Assembly (NCBI GenBank): GCA_963733055.1 | Contig: CAVTBR010000001.1 | Span: 1,120,001 to 1,184,000 of the forward strand | Direction of reading: 5' to 3' | Length of the DNA stretch: 64,000 nucleotides | DNA from: Candidatus Bathyarchaeota archaeon | Lineage (GTDB): Archaea; Thermoproteota; Bathyarchaeia; 40CM-2-53-6 | Shown: positions 35,859 through 60,501 of the stretch, in pieces | Position numbering within the stretch: the first letter of the stretch is position 1 | Layout of the letters: every line of letters begins with the position of its first letter | Position numbers and translations under genes: made by a program | Notes under the pieces: generated by a model | What the model was told of the DNA's origin: nothing | What the model saw: the letters and a program-made list of their open reading frames with translations, nothing else | The model's database searches: none

Positions 35859-36311
35859 TTACGGGTCGGGATTGAGTTCGGATGTTAGCGTGTCTGGCTC
35901 GAGAACGGTAGTAACCGTTCTGGCTCTCTTTGCCATCTCCTGGTCGAAGGTTACTAGGGGGCTCTTCATTTCCTTCGATACCTGAATCACAATGGCGTCC
36001 ATTCCCCTGAGGCGTAGGCTAGATGCCAGTTCGGCGCTTTCACGCGACCTATCTTCTGTCAACTCGGAATAGTTGATCAACTTCAAGTCTCCCCATTTCT
36101 GGATTTGATTCATTACCTTCCTGGCCGCTTCAGGAGTCACCCTCCGCGCGATTGCTCCGCAAACTTCCACGGGTACGATGACGCTCGTTACAACGTGAAG
36201 TTTTCCGTCGAACATTCTCTTGATTATCGCGCCTGCAGTCTGCCTATGTTCTTCGCCTTTCACGAATGCCGACACGAACACGGATGAGTCCAGTGTCGCT
36301 TCTATCATCAT
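35859..36311 (-). CDS. vapC: PIN-domain toxin (VapC)
   Basis: Start 36311 (MMIEATLDSSVFV); VPVEV, LRGMDA and LVTFD motifs. Confidence 0.9.
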   Translation of the reverse strand: MMIEATLDSSVFVSAFVKGEEHRQTAGAIIKRMFDGKLHVVTSVIVPVEVCGAIARRVTPEAARKVMNQIQKWGDLKLINYSELTEDRSRESAELASSLRLRGMDAIVIQVSKEMKSPLVTFDQEMAKRARTVTTVLEPDTLTSELNPDP

Positions 36312-36562
36312 GGTTTTTCTCGATCCTCCCTGACCGCTTCTACGGCAGACTTGCCGCGAGGCCACGCCTTTCCAATCTCTTTAGCCAAGGTTTCAAGTTC
36401 TTCCAACAGTGCTTCCCCGGAAACGGGCGCGAGCAGTAGCCCACGTGAGGTGGGGATCTGTTCCACAATCCCGCCTTCCTTGATGCCGTACTTCTCTCTC
36501 AATTGCTTTGATATGACGACCTGTCCCTTTGCACCAACTTTGCTTCGATGCGTCAAAGTCAT
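36308..36562 (-). CDS. AbrB-family antitoxin
   Basis: KVGAKGQVVISKQLREKYGIKEG; GGAG RBS; ATGA overlap with the toxin. Confidence 0.9.
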   Translation of the reverse strand: MTLTHRSKVGAKGQVVISKQLREKYGIKEGGIVEQIPTSRGLLLAPVSGEALLEELETLAKEIGKAWPRGKSAVEAVREDREKP

Positions 36563-37321: not shown

Positions 37322-38146
37322 CTATGTGGGATTGAGGAACTTCTGTGCCTTAAGAAAATCTGCGGTCTCCTTCACCGCTGCCTTGTTGTCCGGTTTAGGA
37401 AGCACCTCAGCGGAGACCCAGTCTTCATACCCTATGTCTCGCAAGAGTCTTAGCTGTCCTTCGATCTTGAGGTGGCCGTGACCGGGGGGCCAACGGTCGC
37501 TATCGGCAATGTGAAAGTGTCCTATCCTCTCATGATACTTGCGCATGCTCTCCTCTATCGATGGTTCCTCAATGTTCATGTGAAAACTGTCCAAAAGAAT
37601 TCCCGTGGCCGTCAGTTGCTCAGCTTGAATTAGATCAGCCACATGGGCTGCAGTGTTCAGAAGAGAGGTCTCGTAACGGTTTATGGCCTCCAGAACGAGA
37701 CGAGCTCCCGATTCAGTTGCTGCTTTGTCACATTCCCTTAGGCTTTCAATGAGCAGCTCAACCGCATTATTCGCTGATGGGTTCCCTCTCACCATCCCGA
37801 TAACCACGACCGAATTCTCCGTGGACGCAAATCGAATGAGTCCCTTCACGATCCCGATTGCCTTTTCACGTATAGCCGGATCCGGATCGGTGAAGGAAAG
37901 GCCCTTTCCAAGGTAGATAAGGCCGGTTCCAATCGCGGCAAGCTGAAGGCCTTCGGCTCGTATTGAGTCTCTGATTCTCGAGAGTATGCTTTGATCGTCG
38001 AAGCTTAGGTTGAGCTCCACCCCGGTAAAGCCCTGCTCTCTCAGAAGTCGGAGAGCCTTCTCAAATTCGGCGAACGATGAAGCGTTCTCGAACAGGTTCG
38101 GAATCTGGTAACCTAAACCCGCCGAAACTACGAATGAGAAACGCAT
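37322..38146 (-). CDS. iolO: 5-keto-L-gluconate epimerase (IolO-like, xylose-isomerase TIM barrel)
   Basis: AIGTG..YL..GLSFTDPD, IGMVRG, EAINRYET, DSFHMNIEE, HIADSDRWPPG and VSAEVLP, as recalled for Thermotoga IolO; clustered with iolM/iolN. Confidence 0.8.
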   Translation of the reverse strand: MRFSFVVSAGLGYQIPNLFENASSFAEFEKALRLLREQGFTGVELNLSFDDQSILSRIRDSIRAEGLQLAAIGTGLIYLGKGLSFTDPDPAIREKAIGIVKGLIRFASTENSVVVIGMVRGNPSANNAVELLIESLRECDKAATESGARLVLEAINRYETSLLNTAAHVADLIQAEQLTATGILLDSFHMNIEEPSIEESMRKYHERIGHFHIADSDRWPPGHGHLKIEGQLRLLRDIGYEDWVSAEVLPKPDNKAAVKETADFLKAQKFLNPT

Positions 38147-38186
38147 TATTTCACGCGACCAGTTTACTTATTGATTTTGTTCGTAA

Positions 38187-38202
38187 GCTTGATTAATCAA
38201 GC
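38187..38202. promoter_or_regulatory. Perfect 16-bp palindrome, candidate operator
   Basis: GCTTGATTAATCAAGC between divergent iolO and the aminotransferase operon. Confidence 0.55.
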
Positions 38203-38239
38203 ATGCTGTTTCGGCGGCGTTACTTCGGTCGTATCTGAA

Positions 38240-39613
38240 TTGGCGAAGCTTGCGGCTTTGGGTGGTACGAAAACCGTTCAACTGCCAACGTATGAGTGGC
38301 CGGTTGAGTTCCTGAAACGCTACGGGCAAAGGGAGGCTGAGGCGGTTGCTAAGGTTATTCGGAGTGGGGTTGTTTGGGGAACCTTTGCTACCGAGATTTC
38401 CGCCTTCGAGCGCGAGTTCGCCCAGTATGAAGGTACGAAGTACGCGATCTTCATGAGTTCCGGCACGGCCGCACTTCACTGCGCGATGGCCGCGGCTGGC
38501 GTTCAACCGGGCGACGAGGTGATAACGAGTCCGCACACGTTCATCGGTTCAGCCTCATGCATCCTACAGCAGGGCGCAATCCCCGTCTTCGTAGACATCG
38601 ACCCAAGAACCTACACGGTAGACCCATCCAAAATCGAAGAGAAGATCAGCAAAGCAACCAAAGTTATCGAACCCGTCCACATCTACGGCCTACCTTCCAA
38701 CATGGATGCGATCCAGAAAATTGCTGACGCACATAACCTCGTTGTCGTTGAGGACTCATGCCAGGCTCATGGGGCGGAATACAAGGGAAAGAAAGTTGGA
38801 AGCGTCGGCGACATGGGCACCTTCAGCTTCAACGGAACCAAGAACATGCAGACTGGGGAAGGTGGTATGTTCGTCACAAACAGCGATGAGTATGCGGGAA
38901 CATCGGAGAAAGTCCGCATTTTCGGAGAATCCCTTCGTCCCGGCGTCGCACGGCCTTACATGGCGGGGGGCATGGGTTGGAACTACAAGTCAAACGAAAT
39001 AACCGCCGCCCTCGGAAGAGTACAACTGAGCAGGCTGAATGAGACAAACGCCGCGAGAATCGCAATGTCGGAATTCCTCACAAGCCGAATCAGCAAACTA
39101 CCGGGCCTGGTCCCTCCATTCATTCCGGATTACGCGAAGAGCGTTTACCATTACTACAAGATCCGGGTCGATCCAGCAAAAGTCGGCTCAAGGCTGCCTG
39201 CTAAGGACTTCAGGGATCGAGTCGTCGTGGCTCTGCAGGCGGAGGGCGTGAGGGCTGCGATCTGGTGTGCTAGGCCGATATACTTGCAGCCCGTCTTCCA
39301 ATCGAGGGAGGGTTGGGGCAAAGGGTTCCCCTGGAAGAGCCCCTACGTAACAAGAGACATCACCTACCCAGAAGGCCTCTGCCCAGTTGCGGAACGAATC
39401 TCCAACGAAACCTTCAACCTCTCACTTCACCCACCCAATGGCCTAGATTTGATGGAGCAGTATGCTCAGGCTTTCGAGAAAGTAATGGGACACACGGATG
39501 AACTGGAACAGGTGAAAGTCCCACCCTGGGAAGAATGGTGGGGCGGCTACGTCCCAGCGTTCGGCAAAAAGAAACAAGAGGCTAAACTGGAAGAAATATC
39601 AGGGTACCGCTAG
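38240..39613 (+). CDS. DegT/DnrJ/EryC1/StrS aminotransferase (inosose/aminocyclitol transaminase-like)
   Basis: Start probably TTG 38240 (MAKLAALGG...WP); SGTAAL, VEDSCQAHG and FSFNGTKNMQTGEGG (PLP Lys). Confidence 0.9.
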   Translation: MAKLAALGGTKTVQLPTYEWPVEFLKRYGQREAEAVAKVIRSGVVWGTFATEISAFEREFAQYEGTKYAIFMSSGTAALHCAMAAAGVQPGDEVITSPHTFIGSASCILQQGAIPVFVDIDPRTYTVDPSKIEEKISKATKVIEPVHIYGLPSNMDAIQKIADAHNLVVVEDSCQAHGAEYKGKKVGSVGDMGTFSFNGTKNMQTGEGGMFVTNSDEYAGTSEKVRIFGESLRPGVARPYMAGGMGWNYKSNEITAALGRVQLSRLNETNAARIAMSEFLTSRISKLPGLVPPFIPDYAKSVYHYYKIRVDPAKVGSRLPAKDFRDRVVVALQAEGVRAAIWCARPIYLQPVFQSREGWGKGFPWKSPYVTRDITYPEGLCPVAERISNETFNLSLHPPNGLDLMEQYAQAFEKVMGHTDELEQVKVPPWEEWWGGYVPAFGKKKQEAKLEEISGYR

Positions 39614-39671: not shown

Positions 39672-40709
39672 TTGTCCTCTCTAACGGCGAATTCTGCGTT
39701 TGGGTATGACGTCTTCTTCCCTGCTTCAATTTTCAAAATGGTAACCGATGTTCGGGTGAACGATTCTGGGGTGATTGAGAAATCGGCTGGCCGTAGAAAG
39801 AAGAGGGAGAAGCTAACGGTTGATGGGAGACTAGCTATCCTTGCTGCCGATCATCCTGCGCGGAGGGTCACTAAGTCAGGTGACGATCCTCTAGCCATGG
39901 GAAACCGCCATAGCTACCTCTCCCGGGTTCTCAGAGTCGTAACTAGCCCGGAATTCGACGGTGTCATGGGGACGACGGACGTAATCGAAGACCTCCTAAT
40001 CGTTGACCAACTCATGGTCGAACACGGGGGCAAGAGCTTCCTTGATCGTAAAGTTCTGGTCGGGTGCATGAACCGTGGAGGTTTAAGCGGTTCAGAATTC
40101 GAAATGGACGATCGATTCACCTCTTTCACGGCCGACTCCGTCAACCGACTTCGCTTGGACGGCGCAAAGATGATGTTCAGGTTGGATCTGAAAGACACAA
40201 GATCCCTTGACACCATAGTATCCTGCGCCGACGCTGTTACACAATTAAACAAGCATTCGATCGCGGTCTTCCTTGAGGCGTTCAGCGTAGAAAAAACACC
40301 GGAAGGATACAAGGCGCAGAAGAGTGCTGGTGAGCTAATCAAAACGATAGGTGTGGCTACGGCACTTGGAGATTCATCACGCGGAATTTGGTTGAAAGTT
40401 CCATATTGTGACGGCTTTGATCGGGTGGCAAAATCAACCAGTTGCCCAATCCTGATGCTGGGAGGGGAATCATTGGGGAACTTGTCGGGAGTTTTCAAGG
40501 AATTCAGCGACGGTATGGCTGCAGGACAAACCGTTAGGGGGGCGCTCGTGGGACGGAACATTCTCTACCCTGGGCAGGAAGATCCGTCAGCTGTCGCCGA
40601 CGCCGTGAGCAAAATAGTGCACCAAAACTTCACAGTTGAACAAGCCCTCAGCCACATCAAATCGGTTCGCGGCCAGAACATGGGGAACCTGACCTCGGTA
40701 ATTGCGTGA
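39672..40709 (+). CDS. Cgl0159-like class I aldolase-fold barrel
   Basis: LAADHPAR, MNRGGL.G..FEMDDRFT, GAKMM, WLKVP, LMLGG and GALVGR; family associated with inositol clusters. Confidence 0.75.
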   Translation: MSSLTANSAFGYDVFFPASIFKMVTDVRVNDSGVIEKSAGRRKKREKLTVDGRLAILAADHPARRVTKSGDDPLAMGNRHSYLSRVLRVVTSPEFDGVMGTTDVIEDLLIVDQLMVEHGGKSFLDRKVLVGCMNRGGLSGSEFEMDDRFTSFTADSVNRLRLDGAKMMFRLDLKDTRSLDTIVSCADAVTQLNKHSIAVFLEAFSVEKTPEGYKAQKSAGELIKTIGVATALGDSSRGIWLKVPYCDGFDRVAKSTSCPILMLGGESLGNLSGVFKEFSDGMAAGQTVRGALVGRNILYPGQEDPSAVADAVSKIVHQNFTVEQALSHIKSVRGQNMGNLTSVIA

Positions 40710-41931
40710 AACCTTGACTGAGAACCTCCTCATAGCCCAATCAGGCGGACCGACCGCAGTCATTAACAGTAGTATCTCCGGGATCATCGAACAAGCCAAG
40801 CAACAGAGTAAAGTCGGCTCAATTTACGGCGCAGTAAATGGAATTCTCGGCGTCCTCAACGAGGATCTCGTCGACCTACGCCAAGAAGACCCGTCAACGA
40901 TCTCGATGCTCAGGAAAACCCCCTCCGCTGCTCTAGGCTCCTGCCGGTACAAGTTGACCAAAGACGACTATTCCCGGCTGCTGGAAGTCTTTGCGGCCCA
41001 CAACATTTCCTACTTCCTCTGCGCTGGCGGGAACGACTCCATGGATACAGCTCACAGGGTAGCTCAACTTGCTTCTGAAAGAAAATACGACGTAACGGTG
41101 ATTGGCGTCCCGAAGACCGTCGACAACGACCTTATGGTTACCGACCACTGTCCAGGATACGGGAGCGTCGCACGATTCAACGCGATCGCCGTCCGAGATT
41201 CCGGTTTGGACACAGAAGCCATCTACACAGCCGACCCAGTGAAGATCATCGAAACGATGGGCAGGGACACGGGTTGGATAACCGCAAGTACGGCCTTAGC
41301 TAGGGACGGGGCTGATAGTGCTCCTCATCTAATCTACCTGCCCGAACGCCCGTTTGGAGCAGCTAGTTTTCTTGCGGACGTCAAATCCATTCACGATAGG
41401 CTTGGAAGGGTTGTGGTATGCGTGTGTGAGGGGTTGAAGGATGAGAAGGGCGAATTCGTGAAGGCCTCCTCGAAACAGATAGACACGGACAAGTTTGGGC
41501 ACGCGCAACTAGGCGGTGTTGGAGATTATCTGGCGAGCTTAGTTTCTGAGAAGCTGAAAATCAAGGCGCGCTGCGATAAACCGGGAACAATTCAGAGAGT
41601 CTCAATGATGTGCGCGTCCCGGGTAGATCTGGATGAAGCCTACCGCGTAGGACAGGCTGCAGTCTCACAGGCCGTAGGTGGAGAGTCTGACAAGATGGTT
41701 ACATTGGTAAGAAGTTCGAACGATCCATACAAATGCGAAACTGGCCTCGTCGAACTGGAACAAGTCGCGCTCAAAACCAAGAAAGTTCCGATTGAATTCA
41801 TCAATAACGAATCCAACTTCGTCAGCGAGCGATTCCTCGATTACGCGAGACCTCTAATTGGCGGGCCACTGCCAGAATATGCTCATTTGGAGAGAAAAAG
41901 GGTAGGCAGACATCTCCCAGTCCGCGCGTAA
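40702..41931 (+). CDS. pfp: PfkA-family kinase with PPi-dependent signature
   Basis: AQSGGPTAVIN, GGNDS (Asp), PKTVDND (Lys), ETMGRDTGW. Confidence 0.85.
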   Translation: MRETLTENLLIAQSGGPTAVINSSISGIIEQAKQQSKVGSIYGAVNGILGVLNEDLVDLRQEDPSTISMLRKTPSAALGSCRYKLTKDDYSRLLEVFAAHNISYFLCAGGNDSMDTAHRVAQLASERKYDVTVIGVPKTVDNDLMVTDHCPGYGSVARFNAIAVRDSGLDTEAIYTADPVKIIETMGRDTGWITASTALARDGADSAPHLIYLPERPFGAASFLADVKSIHDRLGRVVVCVCEGLKDEKGEFVKASSKQIDTDKFGHAQLGGVGDYLASLVSEKLKIKARCDKPGTIQRVSMMCASRVDLDEAYRVGQAAVSQAVGGESDKMVTLVRSSNDPYKCETGLVELEQVALKTKKVPIEFINNESNFVSERFLDYARPLIGGPLPEYAHLERKRVGRHLPVRA

Positions 41932-41994
41932 CTCTCGCTGGGAGCGGCTGGCAAGTCTTTTCTATTGGATGAGTTGATTCGAGCGAGGATTCGT

Positions 41995-43175
41995 ATGGCG
42001 CAGAAACAAGTCGCAGCAGTTTTACACGCTGACTGGAAGGCACGGCCAGACTACAAGCCCACGGACGAGGAATTGAGAACTAAACGGGCTACCTATGCGA
42101 GCAGGGTTTGGCACAACCCGAGGGTGGTAGTTGAAGAGATCCCGATCCCCGAAGTTGGGCCGAAAGATGTCCTGGTCCGGTTGAAGGCATGTGGCATCTG
42201 CGGATCTGACATGCACCTCTACGAGAGCGACAAGGACGGTTACATTCTGTACCCAGGCCTCGTGAAGACCCCCGTGGTTCTCGGCCATGAACTCTCAGGT
42301 CAGGTAGAGAGGGTGGGAAGTGAGGTTTCTAACTTGAAACCCGGCGACATGGTCGTTTGTGAGGAGATGTGGTGGTGTGGTGAATGCGATCCGTGTAGGA
42401 CCGGTTACCTCAATCAATGCATCAACCTGATGGAAATGGGCTTCACCGACAACGGCGGCTGCGAGCAATACATGAACATCCACTACAAATTCTGCTGGAA
42501 AATTAACGATTTCAAGAAAGTCTTCAAAACTGAAGACAAGATTTACGAAGCCGGTTCACTCGTCGAACCAGCATGCGTTGCATACAACGCCATGTTCGTA
42601 CGCGCGGAAGGCTTCAAACCAGGCTCCGCGGTGGTTGTCTGGGCGCGGGCCCAATTGGTTTAGGTGCGATTGCTCTCGCGAGAGCCGCCGGTGCGGGGAA
42701 GGTCATCGCGTTTGAGCCCCGCAACAAGCGCGCGGAGATTGCAAGGCAAGTAGGTGCGGACGAGGTTTTCGACCAATTCGCGCTGCTCAAATCTGGAACT
42801 CAGCCTTGGGAGAAAATATTGGAGTTGACTGGTGGGGAAGGGGTTGACATGCACGTCGAGTCTGCGGGCGACCCAACTTTCGTCATGCCCCAAGCCGAAC
42901 GCTGTATGAACTTCGGCGGGAAGATCGTCGACATTGGAAGAGCGGATAAGGCCTCGCCGGTTTTCTTTGAACTATACCAAGTAAGGGCCTTGCAGGCGTA
43001 TGGGAGCCAAGGGCATGCAGGTGGCGGTGTGTGGCCTAACGTTATCAAACTCATGGCCTCGGGGAGGGTGGACACGACGAAGATCATCACAAGCCGCTAC
43101 GGTGTCTCAGACGTGCCCAAAGCCCTTGAAAAACTAAAGGACCGCGAAGACGCCAAAGTCACCATCAAACCCTAA
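41995..43175 (+). CDS. iolM: scyllo-inosose 3-dehydrogenase (IolM), split by a -1 frameshift at 42641-42643
   Basis: LHADW..RPDYK, GYILYPGL, EEMWWCG, GSLVEP and GSQGH as recalled for Thermotoga IolM; adding one G to TGGGCGCG restores VWGAGPIG. Confidence 0.85.
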
Positions 43176-43204: not shown

Positions 43205-44380
43205 ATGCAATACCGGGAACTCCACGCGCCTAACATAGGCGTTGGGTTGGTGGGGTATAGCATCGGCAGGGTTCACACCCACGCCTGGCTGAACATGCCT
43301 CTACACTACTACCCCCCACCCGCAAAACCAATACTCGTGGCGGTCGCCGGACGAAACCGTGACCGTCTGACGGCTTTTGCAGAGAAATTTGGTTACAAGA
43401 AAACATACGACAACGCAATGAACCTCGTGAAGGACCCTGAGGTTGACGTCGTCGATTTATGCACGCCACCCTTCGCTCACTCCGAGATAGCAATCCAGGC
43501 GTGCGAGTTGGGAAAGCATGTCATCTGCGAAAAGCCCCTCGCTCGAACGGGTAAAGAAGCTCAAACGATGCTTCGTGCCGCAGAAAGGGCCGGCGTTAAA
43601 CACATGGCCGCTTTCAATTACAGATTCATACCTGCGGTCAGCTTTGCAAGGAAGCTTATCATGGAAGGGTTTGTTGGGCGCGTGCTCAGTTTTCGTGGAG
43701 CGTACTTGAACGTGGAAGTGGGCGATCTAGGATACATCAACCCCGACTTTCCGCTTGATTGGCACTTCAAGAATGAAACCGCTGGGTACGGAGCGCTCAG
43801 CGACCTAGGATCACACATCCTGGACCTCGCAAGATATCTTGTCGGAGAGATCGCTTCAGTGGCGGGTGCAACTGCGACCTACGTTAAAGAACGCCCTCTG
43901 CCAGAATCACCCGGGAAGAAGGGAAGGGTAGAAGTGGACGATTCAACCGTCGCCGCGGTGAAATTCGCAAATGGCGCTTTGGGGACGATTGAAGCTAGCT
44001 GGATGGCGCCGGGGAGAAAGGACTTTCTCCGGTTCGAAATCCTTGGAAGTGAGGGATCGCTCCGTTTCAACCTCGAACGCCTAAATGAGCTCGAAATATT
44101 TTCGCTCAAAGACCCGAACGAGCTTAGAGGCTTCAGGGATGTTTGGACAACTTCCAAGACCCATCCTTACATGGATAAGTTCTGGTTTGAACAGGGAGGG
44201 GGGTTCGGTTGGGACCACGCATTCGTAAACGAAGTTCACCATTTCACCAACTGCATAGTCAACGACAAACCGGTCGAACCGGAAGGGGCAACGTTTCTGG
44301 ACGGGTATAGGAATTGTTTGGTTATGGATGCGATCGCTAAATCTGCGTCGACAGACCGCTGGGTTCACATCGCGAACTAA
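43205..44380 (+). CDS. Gfo/Idh/MocA oxidoreductase (resembles the levoglucosan-dehydrogenase-like subgroup)
   Basis: CEKPLA, AFNYRF, GALSDLGSH, VDD and HPY motifs. Confidence 0.85.
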   Translation: MQYRELHAPNIGVGLVGYSIGRVHTHAWLNMPLHYYPPPAKPILVAVAGRNRDRLTAFAEKFGYKKTYDNAMNLVKDPEVDVVDLCTPPFAHSEIAIQACELGKHVICEKPLARTGKEAQTMLRAAERAGVKHMAAFNYRFIPAVSFARKLIMEGFVGRVLSFRGAYLNVEVGDLGYINPDFPLDWHFKNETAGYGALSDLGSHILDLARYLVGEIASVAGATATYVKERPLPESPGKKGRVEVDDSTVAAVKFANGALGTIEASWMAPGRKDFLRFEILGSEGSLRFNLERLNELEIFSLKDPNELRGFRDVWTTSKTHPYMDKFWFEQGGGFGWDHAFVNEVHHFTNCIVNDKPVEPEGATFLDGYRNCLVMDAIAKSASTDRWVHIAN

Positions 44381-44436
44381 ATCTTGAATCTTAAATACGC
44401 AAACTCCTCTCCCTGAACAGAACGGTGTATTGTGAA

Positions 44437-45408
44437 ATGGGTAAATGGAAACTTCCTCCCACCGGCGGGCATATGGAGAAACAGGATGGAATTTACTTCC
44501 AGAACATGACGATGAATCAGGTGCATGAGAGGCTCAAGAAGAACGACCTAATCATAATCCCACTCGGCGCGACTGAAAACCACGGCCCCCACGCGGCCGT
44601 TGGTGAAGACATCTATTTGGTTTGTCGGATGGCTGAGATGGTGGCGGAGAAAACTGGGTGCACGGTTGCCCAACCTTTCTGGTACGGCTCACACCCCTAT
44701 CACCACATGGGCATGCCGGGTACGGTGATTATAGACGATGATGCGTTCAAAGCGACGCTGCGCGGCATTATGGCGGGGTTCTGGAACGCTGGGTTCAGAA
44801 AGCAGATTCTGTTCAACGGACACGGACAGGAGTACGTCATCCCATCCGCGATTCACCAATTTGCAAAGAGATACCAAGTTCCCGGCGTGTTCATCAACCT
44901 GAACTGGTGGGCCATCTCCCCGCAACATATCAAGGACAAGGAGCATGGGGGCCCGTTCGAAACTCCGTTCATTCACGCGGATGAAGTTGAAACATCCTAC
45001 AGCTTAGCCCTATTCCCCGAATTAATGAAAATGGAAGACGCGGTTGATTCGGACACGTACGGTTTCCTCCCCAACCACGGCCGGCATGTGGACAAGGCGG
45101 CCAACGCCTACCAACGCCCAATCGCCTGGTACGGCCAGATGGGTGCCTCGGCTATGGAGATTTACGCCTACCCGAAAGGAGTGGTGGGGAAAGCAACCCT
45201 CGCCAAAGCAGAGAAAGCCTACCCAGGCGTCGAAGCTATTCTCGACTACATGGTTGAATTGCATGATGACATAATGAAGAAATTCCCCGCAGGCGTCCTC
45301 CCACCCGTCGAGCAAGTAACTAACCGAAACAAAGCCGACATCGAAGCCGTGATTAAGGGCCCGTTGAAGGGCGGACGTCACATCTACACTCTCGCCTATC
45401 CACCCTAA
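44437..45408 (+). CDS. iolN: 3-dehydro-scyllo-inosose hydrolase (IolN, creatininase family)
   Basis: GIYFQNM, TENHGP, HPYHHMGMPGT, NGHGQE, ETPFIHADEVET and HVDKA, as recalled for Thermotoga IolN. Confidence 0.9.
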   Translation: MGKWKLPPTGGHMEKQDGIYFQNMTMNQVHERLKKNDLIIIPLGATENHGPHAAVGEDIYLVCRMAEMVAEKTGCTVAQPFWYGSHPYHHMGMPGTVIIDDDAFKATLRGIMAGFWNAGFRKQILFNGHGQEYVIPSAIHQFAKRYQVPGVFINLNWWAISPQHIKDKEHGGPFETPFIHADEVETSYSLALFPELMKMEDAVDSDTYGFLPNHGRHVDKAANAYQRPIAWYGQMGASAMEIYAYPKGVVGKATLAKAEKAYPGVEAILDYMVELHDDIMKKFPAGVLPPVEQVTNRNKADIEAVIKGPLKGGRHIYTLAYPP

Positions 45409-45729: not shown

Positions 45730-46758
45730 TTACATGGTGATTACGGTCTTCACGGCTTCTCCCTTCCTGTTTAGAGTGAAGGCTTTGTCGATTTCCTTCA
45801 AGGGAATTTCGTGGGTGACGATTACGTCAACCGGGACGAAGCCCGCGTCCAGCATCTCAATGGCGGGCCTAAAGCTTGCGACTTGGGTATGGGTTCCGAG
45901 TATGTCCTTCTCGTAGCGCATGATGTCGAAGGGGCTGAATTTCGCCTCCGCCTCGGGTCTGCATGTCCCCATTATAACCACCCTTCCTCCATACGCGGAT
46001 GATTGAAGCGCGGCTTCCACCGTCTCAATCTTCCCGATAACTTCAACCGCAACATCCGCGCCCTGACCCCCAGTTTCTTCCTTAACCCGTTTCACCGGGT
46101 TCTCGGAGGATGGGTCGATTGTTACGTTTGCTCCGACGTTGAGGGCTGCTTCTCTTCTCTTAGGCGCGATCTCTACGGCGATTATTTTGCGGGCCCCAGC
46201 TTTACCTAACAAGCTCACCCAGAACAACCCCATAGGCCCAGCCCCATAAACCACGGCAGTGTCGGATGGTTTCACTCTTGCGCGGAGGAAACCGTTGACG
46301 ACGCACGAGAAGGGTTCCGTCATGGCGGCTGTCTTCCAATTCATTTGCTTAGGCACCTTGAAGACAAATCCTTCGGGCGCGCGCATGTAATTGGCGAACC
46401 CTCCGTCTATGTCCTCGCCAATGCTGACAAGGTTCTCACAAAGGTTAGGCCTATCCGACCTGCAATACCTGCAAACCCCACATCTCAGGTTTGGGTCGAC
46501 AACAACATGATCCCCAACCGCCACACTCTTCACATCCTTCCCTACCTCAAAAACCTCTCCAGCGCACTCGTGGCCGAGAATCACCGGAGGCTTCGCGGGG
46601 TGGCGCCCTTCTAGAACGGCGAGATCGGTTCCGCACATTCCACATGCTCGCATACGGATGATAACATCATTCCTTCCTGACGCGACCGGAGCCTCTACCT
46701 CGACAACTTTAACGCCGCCCTCGATTCCTTCGAAACGAGCACCGAACATCTTCCCCAA
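45730..46758 (-). CDS. Zn-dependent (MDR) polyol dehydrogenase
   Basis: CGTD, GHE, C-x2-C-x2-C-x7-C, GAGPMG. Confidence 0.9.
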   Translation of the reverse strand: MGKMFGARFEGIEGGVKVVEVEAPVASGRNDVIIRMRACGMCGTDLAVLEGRHPAKPPVILGHECAGEVFEVGKDVKSVAVGDHVVVDPNLRCGVCRYCRSDRPNLCENLVSIGEDIDGGFANYMRAPEGFVFKVPKQMNWKTAAMTEPFSCVVNGFLRARVKPSDTAVVYGAGPMGLFWVSLLGKAGARKIIAVEIAPKRREAALNVGANVTIDPSSENPVKRVKEETGGQGADVAVEVIGKIETVEAALQSSAYGGRVVIMGTCRPEAEAKFSPFDIMRYEKDILGTHTQVASFRPAIEMLDAGFVPVDVIVTHEIPLKEIDKAFTLNRKGEAVKTVITM

Positions 46759-46850: not shown

Positions 46851-48011
46851 TTACTTTTTCGGGGTTACCACAACTTTCATCGAGTCCGGCGCGATGGATT
46901 TCTTCAACGCTTCCTCTGCTGATCCGACTCCGAATTGGTGGGTGACTGCCTTAGAGAATTGAATCGCTCCACGATTGTTCTCGATCATTTTGAGGACTCG
47001 GCCGTACGCTTGGTATGGCATCCCTGCCGCCCCAATGATTCTTGCATTCTTTGCTACGATCTGGCGAGAAGCCGAAATTTGTGTGGGCGCCTCCTCTACG
47101 AACGCCCCCTCTACCAAATAAGTGCCCCCAAGCCGAAGCATATCCAGGCCCTCCGACAGAATTCCAGGATCTCCAGTGCACTCAACGACTAGGTCGGCCC
47201 CGAGGCCGTCGGTGAGTTCCATGACACGCGCCGTCCGTTCCTCTTCTCTCGGATAATCGTTCAGGCTGATCGTTTCGTTTACGCAGAGTTCCTTGGCGAG
47301 CTTAAGACGGTATTCGGATTTGTCTACAGCTATTATTTTCCCTGCCCCTAGCATCTTGGCCATGAAAGCGTTACAGATTCCCAGTGGACCGATTCCCTGA
47401 ACGACTACAGCGTCTGCCGGAGCATAACCTTCTTTCGAGTTCGGCCCTTGGAAAGCTCGCCCAAAGGCGCCATAAGCGACCGCTAGCTGTTCAGCCAAAA
47501 CCGCCTCCTCATCCGAAAGCTGAGAGGGGACTCGGAACATGAAAGTTCCAGGGAGGATGTACATCATCTCTGCCCACCCCCCGAACAGGTGCGGGGGCTG
47601 TTCGCAACTGATCACGTCTCCGTAGCTTCGGTGGTTCAGACACCAAGGATACCCGTACACGTTTCTGCAGTAGTAGCAATGGCCGCAAACGATATCGGCT
47701 GAGATGACTACGCGTTCACCTGCCTTAAGCGGTGAACCATCAGTGCTCATGTCTCTTGAAGCGTTTCTCCCAATCTTCTCTATGACTCCTAAGTTCTCGT
47801 GACCGGGAATCACTGGAAAAGTTACAACGGCGCCGGGAAGCCCAAGCTTCGTCTGGCCGGAGTACATGTGCTTGTCCGTTCCACAAATCGCGGACCCGAG
47901 CATACGCACTAATGCAGAATCATCCGTAACCTCAGGAATAGGAAAACTCCTGGTAATCATCTTTCCAGGCGCAGCCATCACCGCTGCCCTAACAGATCCG
48001 GTTGACTTCAA
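46851..48011 (-). CDS. Zn-dependent (MDR) dehydrogenase
   Basis: Start probably TTG 48011; CGTD, GHE, CGHCYYC...C, GIGPLG. Confidence 0.9.
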   Translation of the reverse strand: MKSTGSVRAAVMAAPGKMITRSFPIPEVTDDSALVRMLGSAICGTDKHMYSGQTKLGLPGAVVTFPVIPGHENLGVIEKIGRNASRDMSTDGSPLKAGERVVISADIVCGHCYYCRNVYGYPWCLNHRSYGDVISCEQPPHLFGGWAEMMYILPGTFMFRVPSQLSDEEAVLAEQLAVAYGAFGRAFQGPNSKEGYAPADAVVVQGIGPLGICNAFMAKMLGAGKIIAVDKSEYRLKLAKELCVNETISLNDYPREEERTARVMELTDGLGADLVVECTGDPGILSEGLDMLRLGGTYLVEGAFVEEAPTQISASRQIVAKNARIIGAAGMPYQAYGRVLKMIENNRGAIQFSKAVTHQFGVGSAEEALKKSIAPDSMKVVVTPKK

Positions 48012-48101
48012 ACCACAATTCTCCAGGCTTCCTGATTGAGCGAAGATAGTTATGTTATATTCGATTGTTGTGGAAAGTTCAGCCGAGAATGTTTGGCGAC
48101 C

Positions 48102-48929
48102 GTGAGGAAGATGATCCCCTGCATAAATCAAGCAACCGTGCTACCCGCGGATACACTCGAATTCATCGATGAAGCGAAAAAGGCAGGGTTCAGTCTCTTA
48201 GAGTTCGACATAGCAAAACTCGAAGAAACCCTCCAGAAACATGGTCTTTCCAAACTCAAAGAGGTCCTGGATCGCAACAAAATCCAAGTAGTCAGCCTGA
48301 ACGCCATTGAAAACTTCCCAATCCTAACCGAGAGCGAAATGGCTTCGTCGCTCGTTCGATGTGAAAAAATTTTCAGGTTAAGCAGAGACCTGAAATGTGA
48401 TCTCGTTGTTGTCAACCCCAATGAGTTCGAAGAAGGGAAGAGGGCGGAGACGCAGAGCGCGTTCGACCTGTTCGTTGACCGAGCTGCGGAAATCGCCGCC
48501 AGATTTTCGGTGAGGTTGAGTTATGAGTTTGTTTCCTACGAAAACAGGATTTTCAACACGCTCGCCGAGAGTTTGCGGGGGCTTTCACGATGGGGATCCG
48601 GGGTGGGGCTGGTTCTGGATGTGTTCCACCTTTACCGCTCGGGAGAAAAGCTAACCCAGATCCCAGATTCTCTAATGGATCGAATGTGGGTATTTCACGT
48701 AAATGATGCACCGCAAGCGCCAATCTCGGCTTTGAGGGATACCGATCGCGTCTTTCCGGGGGAAGGAGTCGTGAACGTGCGTGAGGCGTTGGGTGTACTA
48801 GAAGCGAGGGGGTTTGCTGGGCCCGTGTCGCTGGAACTTTTCAATGCGAAAGCTTGGAAGCAGCCTGCAGCCGCCGTGCTGGGTAAGTCTTGGAACAGCT
48901 TAGAGGGTCTGCTGCGAAATTCGCGTTAG
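48102..48929 (+). CDS. IolI-like inosose isomerase / sugar phosphate isomerase-epimerase
   Basis: CINQAT, SLNA, YEFV, LDVFH, FHVND, DRVFPGEG and SLELF; start probably GTG 48102. Confidence 0.8.
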   Translation: MRKMIPCINQATVLPADTLEFIDEAKKAGFSLLEFDIAKLEETLQKHGLSKLKEVLDRNKIQVVSLNAIENFPILTESEMASSLVRCEKIFRLSRDLKCDLVVVNPNEFEEGKRAETQSAFDLFVDRAAEIAARFSVRLSYEFVSYENRIFNTLAESLRGLSRWGSGVGLVLDVFHLYRSGEKLTQIPDSLMDRMWVFHVNDAPQAPISALRDTDRVFPGEGVVNVREALGVLEARGFAGPVSLELFNAKAWKQPAAAVLGKSWNSLEGLLRNSR

Positions 48930-48955: not shown

Positions 48956-50584
48956 CTATTCGGGTGGGATTTCTTTGTATGCCGCGCCGATATTCAGCCC
49001 CATTCTGCTGAGTCGGAGTCTTGCAGTTAGGTAGATTACTACGCCGATGGCTGCCAACACCACGACACTCTCGACGGCTAGAGTGATGGACGCTCCGAGG
49101 TATACGGTACCCAAGGCTCCGCTTAGCGGAAACAGGAGGGCTATTGCGTAGAAGAGGAACGCTCCGATTCCGACCAGCGAACCAATGATAATCACGGGGG
49201 CTTGGCCCATGGCTCCAACCGTCCTCTTGAAGAGATCCTTCTTCACCACTGGAAAGAGAAGCGCGGCTACGAAGGGCAGCATGTAGCCAATCGGAGGGAT
49301 AATCCCGACACTCAACCAAGCGACCGCGAATCCCGCATACCAAAAGAAGGTGATGAAAATGAACCAGATAACCGAAACTAGCAAAATTGCAAGCTGAGGA
49401 GAATGGAATTTTTCATTTATCTCAGCGAACTTTGTCGGCAGTAACCGATCGAATGCCGCGGCAAAGAACATTCTGGAGATCGTTACAACGTAAGCGACAC
49501 AGACAACCACCCATCCTAGTGTGAGTCCCAATCCGATGAAGAACGCGGCCGCGGGGCTGGTTAGGGAAAGCAGCATCGTCGTTGTAGGATAAGTAGGTAA
49601 GGAGCTAGGGCTATTCGCCTGAACGTAGCTTGCGGAGTTCAAGAACGTAGAGCCGAAGTCATTGTACACCATCTGAGCCATCACTAGAAGAACAATGATG
49701 GTGACCGTGACGGAGAGGAAGAGGGCCTTTGTGATTGACGACTTGACATTCTTAGTCTCCCCAGCCAAATAGGCCCCATAATTGAAACCAGTGAAAGTAA
49801 GGAATCCCCACGGAATGGCGGCTAGAGCCGTATTGGTAAAGTTGAACTGTGTTCCGGCGAACCCTGCTTGAGTAGCTTGCGAAATTATCCCGCTGTAGGT
49901 AGCCGTTGATCCGGCGACCTGCATGGCGTGGTCGAAGAGTGCGGGGAAGGTAGATGGATTAACTGTGAAGAGGAGGGCGATGAATCCGATGTTGATTATT
50001 AGAAAGAGTCCGACGCACACCCTTTGAAACGAAGCGAAAACTCGCAGGCTGAAAATAGAGACAACCGATTCCAGAACGAGCAGAAGAACGCCGATTCCCC
50101 AACCAAAGCAAAATGAGGTGAGCGTGCACCCTGCGCTCATGGTTGAGGCTAGTGAGATGAGTCCTGAGTTGCCTGTTGTGACCCCGAGTGTGAACGCCCA
50201 TTGGGAAAGAGCGATAGTCACATTCGAATAGGTGGACAAACCAATCCCGATAATCACGGTCGTAACGAACAAGAAGACGAACTGAACGCTACCGAACAAT
50301 GGTCCGAGAATCCTCGAGGACCATACGTAGTCTCCACCACTTCTCGGAATAGCCGCACTCAGCTTGGAGTAGACGGCGGCCATGGCGAAGGCAGGAATCG
50401 AACCAAGAAGGAACACGAGGCCAAGATGAGCCCCGGGGAAGAAGAATGGCGCGAACAGGGCGGTTAGAACGAAGCCGTTGAGCATAACAATAATGGCTTG
50501 CGAGAGTATGAACTGATCTAGGAAACCAAGTTCCCGAACAAGCCCAGTTGCGTCCCGGACGAAAACCGGTTTTGAAGCGGACAT
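48956..50584 (-). CDS. APC-family amino acid/amine permease
   Basis: FVRDATGLVR, IPRSGGDYV, YLAGE, FDR and IPPE. Confidence 0.9.
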   Translation of the reverse strand: MSASKPVFVRDATGLVRELGFLDQFILSQAIIVMLNGFVLTALFAPFFFPGAHLGLVFLLGSIPAFAMAAVYSKLSAAIPRSGGDYVWSSRILGPLFGSVQFVFLFVTTVIIGIGLSTYSNVTIALSQWAFTLGVTTGNSGLISLASTMSAGCTLTSFCFGWGIGVLLLVLESVVSIFSLRVFASFQRVCVGLFLIINIGFIALLFTVNPSTFPALFDHAMQVAGSTATYSGIISQATQAGFAGTQFNFTNTALAAIPWGFLTFTGFNYGAYLAGETKNVKSSITKALFLSVTVTIIVLLVMAQMVYNDFGSTFLNSASYVQANSPSSLPTYPTTTMLLSLTSPAAAFFIGLGLTLGWVVVCVAYVVTISRMFFAAAFDRLLPTKFAEINEKFHSPQLAILLVSVIWFIFITFFWYAGFAVAWLSVGIIPPIGYMLPFVAALLFPVVKKDLFKRTVGAMGQAPVIIIGSLVGIGAFLFYAIALLFPLSGALGTVYLGASITLAVESVVVLAAIGVVIYLTARLRLSRMGLNIGAAYKEIPPE

Positions 50585-50625
50585 ATCGGGTAGGTGCCGA
50601 GTGCTGAATATTTAACGCTTTGCGG

Positions 50626-51780: not shown

Positions 51781-51833
51781 AGCGATCCACGATGACGCTC
51801 TTTTGCTTCTTGACTGTAATAATTATTCTCGAC

Positions 51834-53204: not shown

Positions 53205-53452
53205 CTTCTATCACCTGCGCTCGACGATTGTATTTGATTTAAAAGCCTAGAGGTTTCCGTCGTAACGTCATCCTGTTAGTGAAAACGTTTTGTCGACATC
53301 GTTAGGCAAACCGCGTGTTGTGCCCAAGAAATAATTAATCCTAATCATGGTTCATCCGGATGAAATCGGGTAACGATGCTTTCAAATTCCGACGTTTTTT
53401 CTTTCCCAAAATGTTATATGCAAACCTCTTCCAGTAACCTTACTGGATTTCT

Positions 53453-55366: not shown

Positions 55367-55381
55367 AGCAGCTCAAACTAG

Positions 55382-55416: not shown

Positions 55417-55457
55417 ACACAAGCATATTTCGCGATAGAGGCTCGGTCTAAAGCGAA

Positions 55458-56480: not shown

Positions 56481-56489
56481 TGTCAACCT

Positions 56490-60498: not shown

Positions 60499-60501
60499 GG
60501 A

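Follow-up and report, generated by a model that had tools for sequence, protein, structure and literature searches.

The genome of a soil archaeon of the Bathyarchaeia carries an inositol (iol) operon of the Thermotoga type, with IolM, IolN and an IolO-like protein as the Thermotoga-type calls, and the question raised by this locus is what a Cgl0159-like aldolase and a PfkA-family kinase, encoded side by side within the operon, are doing there. The window, i.e., the whole stretch of DNA analysed, comprises 64,000 nucleotides, and its relevant features are collected in Table 1. The first-pass annotation had described a coupled Cgl0159-like aldolase and PfkA inside the iol operon, which the coordinates of the open reading frames and the profile matches confirm. 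The two frames encode 345 (aldolase) and 409 (kinase) residues, and their 8-nt overlap requires that the kinase starts at the TTG at 40702; an alternative TTG at 40714 gives a 4-nt gap behind the aldolase stop codon TGA (40707–40709), and the genes are tightly coupled with either start.

Table 1. Features of the iol operon and its surroundings (positions within the window).
Feature	Position	Strand	Matches and residues
IolO-like xylose-isomerase-fold epimerase (predicted 5-keto-L-gluconate to D-tagaturonate), divergent from the operon	37322..38146	-	PF01261, 132 bits
DegT/DnrJ/EryC1-family PLP aminotransferase, first gene of the operon	38171..39613	+	PF01041, 330 bits
Cgl0159-like class I (Schiff-base) aldolase	39672..40709	+	PF22649, 3fok, invariant K242
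PfkA-family kinase, PRK14072 subfamily, PPi signature	40702..41931	+	PF00365, PRK14072, 3hno
PFK residues 166-181, first clade-specific segment	41197..41244	+	D166, T171, E172, I174, D178, K181
PFK residues 292-297, second clade-specific segment	41575..41592	+	'DKPGTI' before QR
IolM (scyllo-inosose 3-dehydrogenase), two frames	41965..43175 (41965-42663 + 42573-43175)	+	NF041097
GFO/IDH/MocA-family dehydrogenase	43205..44380	+	PF01408, PF02894, PF22725
IolN, 3-dehydro-scyllo-inosose hydrolase (predicted ring opening to 5-keto-L-gluconate)	44425..45408	+	NF041098
Two Zn-dependent alcohol-dehydrogenase paralogues beside the operon	45730-46758 + 46851-48131	-	PF08240 + PF00107

The upper genes are clearest for IolN, which scores 529 bits against NF041098 (cut-off 245). 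The two frames of IolM reach 304.6 (N-terminal half) and 201.6 bits (C-terminal half) against the NF041097 cut-off of 450, with 500–518 bits for intact orthologues; the frame change, as seen by tblastn, corresponds to an apparent loss of one G in the G run at approximately 42640–42646, falls within the GxGxxG motif, and the sole contig bridging the site, from a related metagenome, has an extra G behind 42640. The GFO/IDH/MocA-family dehydrogenase, likely the inositol dehydrogenase of the operon, scores 362 bits against LevoglcsnDh (cut-off 650) and 126 bits against IolG (cut-off 355), and it is conserved in the loci L008, L010 and L089, where orthologues of the two Zn-dependent alcohol dehydrogenases (74–79% identity) also lie beside the operon. 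In NCBIfam the IolO-like protein matches keto_glucon_epim_IolO best, but its 243.5 bits fall short of the cut-off (300), which the IolO partners in bacterial operons exceed with 312–360 bits; its orthologues are kept beside the aldolase–PFK pair in L009, L010 and L087–L089. For the aminotransferase, which occurs in 8 of the 84 aldolase loci considered below, no NCBIfam equivalog reaches its cut-off, and it is possibly an inosamine or inosose aminotransferase. By family membership, the GFO-type dehydrogenase would convert inositol to scyllo-inosose and IolM would convert this to 3-dehydro-scyllo-inosose, the ring of which would be opened by IolN to give 5-keto-L-gluconate, with the IolO-like epimerase then producing D-tagaturonate. 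The operon probably encodes a complete route for inositol, and perhaps for inosamine too, with an undescribed lower branch.

The aldolase matches the Pfam family PF22649 (Cgl0159-like) with 243.9 bits (cut-off 27), and its best solved relative, a member of the same barrel family, is 3fok from Corynebacterium glutamicum, deposited as 'uncharacterized protein Cgl0159' (E 8.7e-52, residues 21–320). Its K242 (40395–40397) is invariant in 14 of 14 aligned homologues and aligns with K184 of MJ0400 ('ivK', chain positions 182–184 of 2qjg) as well as with the lysine of LsrF, replaced by Ala in 4p2v, both of which we take to be catalytic Schiff-base lysines, although MJ0400 and LsrF match no more than the final third of the protein; the GG...GRN motifs of the phosphate loop are also found. 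Class I aldolases of this superfamily bind phosphate next to the ketone, and the protein is proposed here to be an aldolase of keto-uronate 1-phosphates that would release dihydroxyacetone phosphate (DHAP) and tartronate semialdehyde. In C. glutamicum, Cgl0159 is presumably the same as cg0198 and, as we assume, lies within the classical iol cluster, beside iolC. A full-text literature search for Cgl0159 by name found no paper, and one passage of a published study terms cg0198 a 'conserved hypothetical protein' (PMC4609165).

The kinase scores 165.4 bits against PF00365 (cut-off 30.9) and 520.7 bits against NF010675 (PRK14072, 'diphosphate--fructose-6-phosphate 1-phosphotransferase'; cut-off 273), and it aligns with 3hno over residues 7–393 of 409 (E 1.8e-92). 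The motifs GGNDS (residues 109–113) and PKTVDND (residues 137–143) are present, as had been noted from the sequence at the outset; the alignment shows them to be common to ordinary PRK14072 members, and they mark no special adaptation because members of the same subfamily carry them too. The idea that they might signal a new specificity was rejected, since they are found throughout the free PRK14072 PFKs, i.e., those not linked to an aldolase. The solved PPi-PFKs of this subfamily (3hno and 3k2q) share with the kinase GG(N/G)DS, PKTVDND, MGR and the catalytic Asp. In E. coli PFK numbering (E222 etc.), use of PPi as the donor is marked by the replacement of Gly104 by Asp and of Gly124 by Lys. 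This signature is found in the kinase, where N111/D112 align with E. coli GGDGS (D112 at its G) and K138 with the G of PGTIDND, and the catalytic TxDND of PKTVDND aligns with E. coli 'PGTIDND'. At the sugar site, 'ETMGR' aligns with E. coli 'EVMGR' and 'CEG' with 'ITEH' (the E222 equivalent), and the positions of E. coli R162, R243 and R252 are occupied by P, D and L, respectively, the solved PPi-PFK 3hno likewise having L at the R252 position. The enzyme is proposed to act as a PPi-dependent keto-uronate (D-tagaturonate) 1-kinase.

The whole genome, which is 96% complete with 5.3% contamination, was searched with profiles for the enzymes that usually act downstream of tagaturonate. The first-pass annotation had recognised no uxaE, uxuB or uxuA in the window, and this holds for the whole genome, where no match was found for UxaE (PF16257), UxuA (PF03786) or UxuB/UxaB (PF01232, Mannitol_dh), the UxaE, UxuB and UxuA searches being positive in a T. 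maritima control; UxaA (PF04295) and IolB (KduI/IolB family, PF04962) likewise had no match in the whole genome. A separate housekeeping PFK, the existence of which had been raised as a point to check, was sought as well, and two further PF00365 genes were found: one of them lies ~1.2 kb from a DeoC-family aldolase and has, on reading its sequence, the E. coli-type R162, R243, H249 and R252. Given these two PFKs and the DeoC-family aldolase, the pair is not the evident means by which this genome makes and splits FBP. Another candidate FBP aldolase is present in all 12 of the other pair-bearing genomes tested, and of the 14 genomes in which IolN adjoins the aldolase, UxaE gave no match in 13 and Mannitol_dh none in 12.

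The pair was then followed across 84 de-duplicated aldolase loci from many phyla, with neighbours defined by tblastn; neighbour calling by greedy longest open reading frames was dropped, having missed the aldolase frame itself in 13 of 73 loci, all of them GC-rich. A PFK is present in 64 of the 84 loci, in 58 of them on the same strand and within 400 nt, a xylose-isomerase-fold barrel in 44 and IolN in 15. A tartronate-semialdehyde reductase-like protein, a D-2-hydroxyacid dehydrogenase (hydroxypyruvate/glyoxylate reductase) or a glycerate 2-kinase occurs in 21 of the 84; the control, 74 loci of free PFKs of the same subfamily, yielded no IolN, no TIM barrel, no aldolase and one reductase, although the enrichment of 21/84 over 1/74 cannot be read as a probability, because the tblastn queries were chosen by the authors and the loci are phylogenetically related. 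Carriers of the pair include Bathyarchaeia, Anaerolineae, Armatimonadota, Firestonebacteria and Asgard archaea. Many pair-bearing loci are without iol genes, and four genomes of Latescibacterota or Planctomycetia had no IolN match above the cut-off, so that the notion of Cgl0159-like proteins as belonging to inositol clusters only has to be given up.

In one bacterial operon (L153), IolN (514 bits) and IolO (312 bits, cut-off 300) are followed by an ABC transporter, the aldolase, the PFK, a hydroxypyruvate isomerase (361.9 bits, NCBIfam cut-off 353.45) and a 2-hydroxy-3-oxopropionate (tartronate semialdehyde) reductase (399.8 bits, NCBIfam cut-off 340.75), an order that is identical in L161; in L133 and L160, a 2-hydroxy-3-oxopropionate reductase (386 and 373 bits) also lies beside the pair. 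The order is IolN–IolO–barrel–glyoxylate reductase–aldolase–PFK in L112 (glyoxylate reductase 468.6 bits, cut-off 455) and LacI–IolM–ADH–IolN–IolO–aldolase–PFK in L130, and the bacterial operons have the pair downstream of IolN–IolO, in several directly behind them. In a Bathyarchaeal relative (L010), the cluster also contains a GhrB-like reductase and a glycerate 2-kinase-like gene, and orthologues of both occur elsewhere in the genome of the window.

As further support for the proposed role, the aldolase-linked PFKs largely form a separate group, in that 46 of 60 fall in one clade together with a single free sequence (support 0.774), the window kinase among them, the remaining 14 branching outside. 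A column comparison of the 60 aldolase-linked with 71 free sequences gave 17 clade-specific columns, clustered at residues 166–181 and 292–297; the former segment includes the counterpart of E. coli Arg162 (alignment to 1pfk), and in the latter E at 293 and L, Y or V at 296 predominate among the free PFKs. These columns were revealed by grouping the sequences by aldolase linkage, instead of by comparing the Bathyarchaeal PFKs with all others, for which only 2 of the columns conserved to at least 85% differ, which is uninformative. What sets the kinase apart from the free PRK14072 PFKs is its place in this clade, which keeps company with the Cgl0159-like aldolase and has its own residues in both segments.

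In the mechanism that we favour, the PfkA-family kinase would use PPi to phosphorylate the CH2OH group beside the keto group of the substrate, as PFK does with fructose 6-phosphate, the carboxylate of the substrate occupying the place of the 6-phosphate. The Schiff-base aldolase would then cleave between C3 and C4 to give DHAP and tartronate semialdehyde, which could be turned into glycerate by direct reduction or via hydroxypyruvate, with a glycerate 2-kinase producing 2-phosphoglycerate. Tagaturonate has the tagatose configuration, and tagatose 6-phosphate is accepted by PfkA enzymes. We regard this sequence of steps, from the transfer of phosphate from PPi to D-tagaturonate (or its epimer) through to 2-phosphoglycerate, as fairly probable; beyond family membership, it is the gene context that suggests such a lower branch. 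Points that speak against it are the small number of well-conserved columns in which Bathyarchaeal and free PFKs differ, the 14 linked PFKs outside the main clade, the pair-bearing loci that have no iol genes, the IolO-like score under its threshold and the frameshift in IolM. The first-pass annotation had suggested a kinase and aldolase acting on tagaturonate or 5-keto-L-gluconate, and all genomic tests came out as predicted by it: the idea gains support from the lack of matches for UxaE, UxuA, UxuB, UxaA and IolB, from the separate PFKs and aldolase, from the wide conservation of the pair, and from its IolN–IolO and reductase neighbours, the activity itself being a prediction. A literature search, whose scope did not take in Rodionova et al. 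2013, found no description of such a kinase–aldolase route, and no kinase for, or phosphate of, tagaturonate, fructuronate or 5-ketogluconate; for tartronate semialdehyde with DHAP, aldolase and inositol, nothing related was found among the matches listed, as judged by title and abstract.

The main rival to this keto-uronate reading, although an unlikely one, is ordinary central metabolism, in which the kinase would be a PPi-dependent F6P (or S7P) 1-phosphotransferase and the Cgl0159-like protein an unrecognised class I FBP/SBP aldolase, placed in the operon through co-regulation or by chance. With 520.7 bits, the kinase clears by a wide margin the cut-off (273) of a family that takes its name from F6P; its closest solved structures are PPi-PFKs, its motifs are shared with free members, and relatives of the aldolase are sometimes named 'DhnA family fructose-bisphosphate aldolase class Ia'. 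Some loci would also suit this reading, such as those of Firestonebacteria (aldolase–PFK–barrel–transketolase–H+-PPase), the Anaerolineae locus L164, where the pair lies behind a GAPDH-like gene and a phosphoglycerate kinase in what looks like a glycolytic context, and the Latescibacterota loci, where sugar-acid context was not seen. However, the genome already has two PFKs, one of them near the DeoC-type aldolase, the other pair-bearing genomes tested all have another FBP aldolase candidate, and a free PFK of the PRK14072 subfamily that is paired with an aldolase (L019) is paired with a class II FBA. Ordinary metabolism would further leave unexplained why tartronate semialdehyde reductase and hydroxypyruvate isomerase share an operon with the pair, why its loci differ from those of free PFKs in the sugar-acid enzymes counted above, and why it is placed directly downstream of IolN–IolO.

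Two further readings keep the pair, or a part of it, in inositol breakdown. The pair may act on another inositol-derived keto acid, either 2-deoxy-5-keto-D-gluconate, which would give DHAP and malonate semialdehyde in the manner of IolC/IolJ, or un-epimerised 5-keto-L-gluconate. The presumed place of Cgl0159 beside iolC in the classical cluster of C. glutamicum, the IolB/KduI-family gene that adjoins the aldolase in 3 of the 84 loci and the same type of C3–C4 cleavage all fit with this, but the genome has no IolB-family match, IolM and IolN of the operon lead to a 2-hydroxy and not a 2-deoxy acid, and what lies nearby are reductases of the tartronate-semialdehyde/hydroxypyruvate type rather than a malonate-semialdehyde dehydrogenase, so that we consider it quite unlikely; tagaturonate is favoured over 5-keto-L-gluconate because, in bacteria, an IolO-type epimerase gene stands ahead of the aldolase gene in the operon (directly in several cases). 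Alternatively, in a non-homologous counterpart of the Ashwell route, a Zn-dependent dehydrogenase would reduce tagaturonate, an enolase-superfamily dehydratase would form KDG, a PfkB kinase would phosphorylate it and the Cgl0159-like or another aldolase would cleave KDPG, the PFK having an unrelated role. The two extra Zn-dependent dehydrogenases conserved beside the operon, the enolase-superfamily dehydratase in L010 and the TM0415-like PfkB kinase encoded immediately ahead of the aldolase gene in L087–L089, which could be the true keto-acid kinase in those relatives, point in this direction. PPi-dependent KDG kinases are also known (PMC12632266); that paper, on Luteolibacter, was the only one to emerge from a broader literature search, and its route is the canonical one through reductase, dehydratase and KDG. 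Against this very improbable scheme, the window has no dehydratase or PfkB kinase by profile search, the close PFK–aldolase adjacency in 58 of the 84 loci would go unexplained, and in alignments the aldolase matches not the pyruvate-forming aldolases but the DhnA/LsrF/MJ0400 group, whose members bind a phosphate adjacent to the ketone.

If the keto-uronate reading is right, PF22649, a family solved structurally yet uncharacterised, would gain its first function, the phosphofructokinase family would include kinases for non-phosphorylated sugar acids, and a gap in inositol catabolism would be closed where IolM, IolN and IolO are present without known enzymes downstream of tagaturonate. Such a route would spare ATP through the use of PPi and deliver two glycolytic C3 units with no decarboxylation. 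The module is widespread in uncultured bacteria and archaea, where it probably serves other sources of 2-keto-uronates, too, and in many of these microbes the undescribed route appears to take the place of the standard one. More tentatively, and with a little less than an even chance in our estimate, one may speak of a PPi-driven 'phosphorylative keto-uronate cleavage', in which a dedicated PfkA clade (tagaturonate/fructuronate 1-kinase) and Cgl0159-like aldolases would take the place of the Ashwell- and UxaE-type lower routes in the breakdown of inositol, and probably of hexuronates, in bacteria and archaea, mostly uncultured, from at least 10 phyla, Bathyarchaeia and Asgard archaea included, the tartronate semialdehyde going to glycerate or, via hydroxypyruvate, perhaps to transketolase. 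Inositol and uronic acids are abundant carbon of plant and soil origin, and the carriers of the pair are major uncultured lineages, the carbon metabolism of which is inferred from annotation, in which one of these genes is currently labelled a glycolytic PFK and the other a hypothetical protein.

Among the closest known systems is that of Thermotoga maritima, the inositol pathway of which, as reportedly set out by Rodionova et al. in 2013, runs through IolG, IolM, IolN and IolO and then through UxaE–UxuB–UxuA–KdgK–KdgA. The upper enzymes are the same by NCBIfam (IolN above the cut-off, IolM in halves, the IolO-like protein below). A PPi-dependent kinase is embedded in both operons (here by its signature), and for that of T. 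maritima the true acceptor is described as still to be established, 5-keto-L-gluconate and tagaturonate being put forward (PMC5931981). In contrast to T. maritima, the Bathyarchaeia genome is without UxaE, UxuA and UxuB/UxaB matches, and the embedded kinase is of the PfkA and not the ribokinase family, with the gene of a class I aldolase immediately adjoining. In the lower part of the classical iol pathway of Bacillus subtilis, IolC (a PfkB kinase) and IolJ (a class II aldolase) act on 2-deoxy-5-keto-D-gluconate. There, as in the proposed route, the CH2OH group beside the keto group of a 5-keto-hexonate is phosphorylated, followed by cleavage to DHAP and a C3 aldehyde acid; the Bathyarchaeal enzymes, however, are of other kinase and aldolase families in a genome with no IolB-family match, and their presumed substrate would keep its 2-hydroxyl, giving tartronate semialdehyde and not malonate semialdehyde. 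Finally, the sulfoglycolytic EMP pathway (YihV sulfofructose kinase and YihT aldolase) and the tagatose-6-phosphate pathway (LacC/LacD) employ kinases of the PfkB family. They resemble the proposed route in starting from a ketohexose that bears an anionic group at C6, placing a phosphate on C1 and letting a class I aldolase break the product into DHAP and a C3 aldehyde, and they differ from it in that the kinase here belongs to the PfkA family and C6 itself would form the anionic group, as a carboxylate.

Convergent genomic evidence suggests that the PfkA-family kinase and the Cgl0159-like aldolase of the iol operon probably act in sequence on a keto-uronate derived from IolN, cleaving it to DHAP and tartronate semialdehyde; the more specific version, in which the acceptor would be D-tagaturonate, the phosphoryl donor PPi, and the route widespread in many phyla, is put forward tentatively, at somewhat below an even chance. 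ORF calls combined with Pfam and NCBIfam profiles resolve 37.3-45.4 kb into one divergently oriented gene and, after it, an operon on the plus strand, in an assembly of three contigs (2.88 Mb, 96% complete, 5.3% contamination) from the Bathyarchaeia. The first-pass annotation had described overlapping aldolase and PfkA genes inside an iol operon, which is correct by both coordinates and profile matches, the overlap being 8 nt with a TTG start at 40702 and turning into a 4 nt gap with a TTG start at 40714. IolM is split over two frames, with the switch lying inside the GxGxxG motif of the Rossmann fold, and the sequence looks as though a single G had dropped out of a G run near 42640-42646. The extra G is present in one metagenome contig of a relative about 92% identical, the sequencing run nearest to the genome itself having no coverage there, and the frameshift is plausibly an assembly error, given the three-contig genome, not distinguishable from a real pseudogene. 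The DegT-family aminotransferase, found in 8 of the 84 aldolase loci, may channel amino-cyclitols (inosamines), by way of scyllo-inosose, into the pathway. The window also encodes TrmB and Lrp/AsnC regulators, and its pilus or archaellum-like assembly genes and A24 prepilin peptidase speak for an archaeal origin.

Features and their positions (plain numbers, window; L numbers, database loci with relatives of the aldolase or kinase; C1, contig 1 of the same genome)
Feature	Position	Strand	Profile match (cut-off)
Archaeal type IV pilus or archaellum-like assembly genes (two T2SSF-domain genes, T2SSE ATPase)	4178-7572		
Archaeal A24 prepilin peptidase	11892-12689		
PIN-domain gene, MazE/AbrB-like partner upstream; likely toxin-antitoxin pair	12736-13514		
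PIN-domain gene just upstream of iol region	35859-36365		
IolO-like epimerase	37322-38146	minus	243.5 bits (300; below)
DegT/DnrJ/EryC1 aminotransferase, first operon gene	38171-39613	plus	
Cgl0159-like aldolase	39672-40709	plus	PF22649, 243.9 bits
PfkA-family kinase	40702-41931	plus	PRK14072, 520.7 bits (273)
IolM, two frames	41965-42663 and 42573-43175	plus	
GFO-family dehydrogenase	43205-44380	plus	
IolN	44425-45408	plus	529 bits (245)
Second catabolic island: amino-acid permease, sarcosine-oxidase-like FAD oxidase, class III aminotransferase, five-gene peptide/opine-type ABC transporter, another GFO dehydrogenase with TIM barrel, aldo-keto reductase, CpsA-type carboxypeptidase	48956-63608		carboxypeptidase, 605.8 bits (500)
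Unnamed xylose-isomerase-fold barrel	L010:7898-8554; L112:5911-6849; L115:1975-2889; L123:10322-11242; C1:468198-468824		
PfkB kinase directly upstream of aldolase	L087:3900-5090; L088; L089:8963-9928		
Gene string from GAPDH-like gene to FGGY kinase, including ComA-like phosphosulfolactate synthase and LarAH5-type racemase	L164:2450-13047 (similar: L159, L162, L167, L172)		racemase, 548.8 bits (462)
Free PRK14072-type PFK gene overlapping class II fructose-bisphosphate aldolase gene (Phycisphaeraceae)	L019:8031-10114		

The absence of uxaE, uxuB and uxuA, noted earlier for the window, extends to the whole genome, in which profile searches gave no match for UxaE, UxuA, the mannitol-dehydrogenase family (UxuB/UxaB) or altronate dehydratase, each of these profiles having been detected in suitable control genomes; IolB of the classical inositol route was likewise without a match genome-wide. 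The known onward routes from tagaturonate, namely that of T. maritima and the reductase/dehydratase route confirmed in Luteolibacter (PMC12632266), were thus not found. Where the aldolase has IolN as a neighbour (14 genomes, their completeness unreported), UxaE had no match in 13 and the mannitol-dehydrogenase family none in 12.

The gene order of operons with the pair, each on one strand, was read using NCBIfam for 36 neighbour proteins and Pfam for the intervening genes. L153 runs from IolN (514 bits) and IolO (312, cut-off 300) through three ABC-transporter genes to the aldolase and PFK, followed by hydroxypyruvate isomerase (361.9, cut-off 353.45) and 2-hydroxy-3-oxopropionate reductase (399.8, cut-off 340.75); L161 repeats this order (isomerase 332 bits, below cut-off; reductase 384), and the same reductase adjoins the pair in L133 and L160 (386 and 373 bits, respectively). 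L112 reads IolN, IolO (360), a second barrel, glyoxylate reductase (468.6, cut-off 455), aldolase and PFK, and L130 reads LacI, IolM (525), a Zn-dehydrogenase, IolN (546), IolO (295), aldolase and PFK, then a sugar ABC transporter, an Fe-dehydrogenase and a LarA homologue. In the Bathyarchaeal relative L010, the pair is preceded by a glycerate 2-kinase-like gene (242 bits, below cut-off), IolO, an enolase-superfamily dehydratase, DegT, a GhrB-like reductase (436 bits, cut-off 455) and a partial TIM barrel; orthologues of the reductase and its barrel (77% and 75% identical) and of the glycerate 2-kinase-like gene (57%) lie elsewhere on contig 1 of the genome under study. A supply of tartronate semialdehyde is required for tartronate semialdehyde reductase and hydroxypyruvate isomerase to act; among IolN, IolO, aldolase and kinase, the aldolase is the sole candidate source, and this is the central argument for the kinase-aldolase scheme. 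A distinct xylose-isomerase-fold barrel left unnamed by NCBIfam travels with a GhrB-like reductase beside the pair in L010, L112, L115 and L123, is also encoded on contig 1 of the genome under study, and is a candidate non-orthologous hydroxypyruvate isomerase.

Viewed from its keto end, 5-keto-L-gluconate has the D-sorbose configuration, and its 3-epimer D-tagaturonate that of D-tagatose, a relation that agrees with the ketose 3-epimerase fold of IolO. Tagatose 6-phosphate is accepted by PfkA enzymes, and LacD and YihT, class I aldolases of the same superfamily, split tagatose- and fructose-configured 1-phospho-ketoses. Phosphorylation of tagaturonate at C1 and cleavage between C3 and C4 would then yield DHAP and tartronate semialdehyde. 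The 345-residue aldolase matches 3fok ("uncharacterized protein Cgl0159") at E 8.7e-52, and in a profile of 14 homologues its invariant Lys242 aligns with the "ivK" at positions 182-184 of MJ0400 and with the lysine of LsrF replaced by alanine in entry 4p2v, these being the Schiff-base lysines of the two aldolases. Because of this alignment and of the GG...GRN motifs after Lys242, which resemble the phosphate loops of the MJ0400/LsrF group, the protein is most likely a Schiff-base aldolase binding a ketone with a neighbouring phosphate.

Of 80 loci obtained with the kinase as query, only the six most similar to it (74-86% identical, Bathyarchaeia-like) carry the aldolase, which the other 74 (38-52% identical) lack. 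Aldolase loci, collected with the aldolase as query and then with the 14-homologue alignment, came from groups including Anaerolineae, Armatimonadota, Bacillota, Firestonebacteria, Latescibacterota, Poribacteria, Acidobacteriota, Planctomycetia, Betaproteobacteria, Atabeyarchaeia and other Asgard archaea. Neighbours were scored by tblastn with 24 query proteins from these loci (E <=1e-8, >=40% query coverage) in 84 aldolase loci, two duplicates having been dropped, and in 74 free-PFK control loci (mean length 11.9 kb and 16.8 kb, respectively). The contrast between the two sets is strong, and is not a probability, the counts seeing only families of the query set and gene order being partly inherited among related genomes. 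Loci L008, L009 and L087, titled Acidiferrales, Acidoferrum and Methylomirabilota, carry genes 70-75% identical to those of the window in Bathyarchaeal order; they are probably archaeal contigs placed in the wrong bin, not bacterial homologues.

Neighbours of the aldolase compared with those of free PFKs
Neighbour	Aldolase loci	Free-PFK controls
PFK anywhere in locus	64/84	74/74
PFK <=400 nt, same strand	58/84	not applicable
Xylose-isomerase-fold TIM barrel	44/84	0/74
IolN	15/84	0/74
LarA homologue	13/84	0/74
D-2-hydroxyacid dehydrogenase	12/84	1/74
GarR-like reductase	9/84	0/74
Glycerate kinase	3/84	0/74
Any of the preceding three	21/84	1/74
H+-PPase	4/84	6/74

The GGND/PKTVDND motifs, to which the first-pass annotation had drawn attention, are present in the kinase (GGNDS, residues 109-113; PKTVDND, 137-143), where, in the alignment with E. 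coli PfkA, D112 and K138 occupy the two positions separating PPi-dependent from ATP-dependent PFKs, and the catalytic TxDND aspartate and MGR motif are retained. As a mark of a new substrate GGNDS and PKTVDND are ruled out, since related ordinary PFKs of Clostridia, Thermotogae, Dyella, Bryobacterales and others have them too; they signify the PPi-type PFK subfamily. In a midpoint-rooted FastTree phylogeny (LG+gamma) of 132 sequences, 60 aldolase-linked and 72 free, from which sequences below 330 residues and duplicate loci were left out, 46 of the 60 linked PFKs form one clade with a single free sequence (L011; support 0.774), and the remaining 14 are spread over three smaller groups. Linked and free PFKs are distinguished by 17 columns, mostly within two stretches: residues 166-181, the loop before ETMGR that spans the E. 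coli Arg162-aligned position, with D178 and K181 characteristic, and residues 292-297, "DKPGTI" before QR, where E at 293 and L/Y/V at 296 predominate in free PFKs. The charge swaps in both would fit a remodelled acceptor pocket.

The pair could alternatively be an ordinary PFK and aldolase making and splitting FBP, a reading best served by the Anaerolineae locus L164, where a GAPDH-like gene, PGK, an unknown gene, ComA, PFK, aldolase, GH4, LarA and an FGGY kinase follow one another. It is nevertheless improbable, as another FBA candidate is present in all 12 of 12 pair-bearing genomes of varied context (a class II enzyme in seven, DeoC-family matches of 116-148 bits in five). A search for a separate housekeeping PFK found two further PFKs in the genome under study; the one on contig 3 has, by reading of its sequence, E. 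coli-type sugar-phosphate ligands (SHDR...MGR, R...LGHVVRGG) and has a DeoC-family aldolase at a distance of about 1.2 kb, so that the operon pair is not the sole means of making and splitting FBP. The L164-type PFKs form a branch of their own and may differ in substrate. The overlapping genes of L019 are what an ordinary glycolytic pairing looks like in the PRK14072 subfamily.

The pair is also found without iol genes nearby. In Latescibacterota it sits beside glycosyltransferase and PEP-utilising genes, and IolN had no match above cut-off in four Latescibacterota or Planctomycetia genomes with the pair. Firestonebacteria (L110, L121, L123, L131) conserve the order aldolase, PFK, unnamed TIM barrel, transketolase N-terminal subunit and H+-pyrophosphatase; hydroxypyruvate is a transketolase donor, and the transketolase could consume it were the barrel to make it from tartronate semialdehyde by isomerisation. 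GH4 enzymes include uronidases, and, speculatively, such contexts would be compatible with keto-uronate cleavage were the module supplied with 2-keto-uronates of other origin. In one Bathyarchaeal sub-group (L087-L089), the PfkB kinase upstream of the aldolase gives a full-length, weak match (E 1e-10) to TM0415, the PPi-dependent kinase encoded by the iol operon of T. maritima, and might be the keto-acid kinase there or a counterpart of the T. maritima accessory kinase. The PPi-dependent ribokinase-family kinase of that operon has a Km of 12 mM for inositol, and the authors suggest 5-keto-L-gluconate or tagaturonate as its possible true acceptor (PMC5931981).

A full-text search of the non-subscription literature returned nothing about Cgl0159, no tagaturonate, fructuronate or 5-ketogluconate kinase, and no inositol route to tartronate semialdehyde. 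The proposed cleavage of the keto-uronate is paralleled by IolC/IolJ, acting on the 2-deoxy analogue, and by the kinase-plus-aldolase logic of YihV/YihT on sulfofructose; the pathway logic would be a known one, realised here in a new form by two enzyme families without a known role of this kind.
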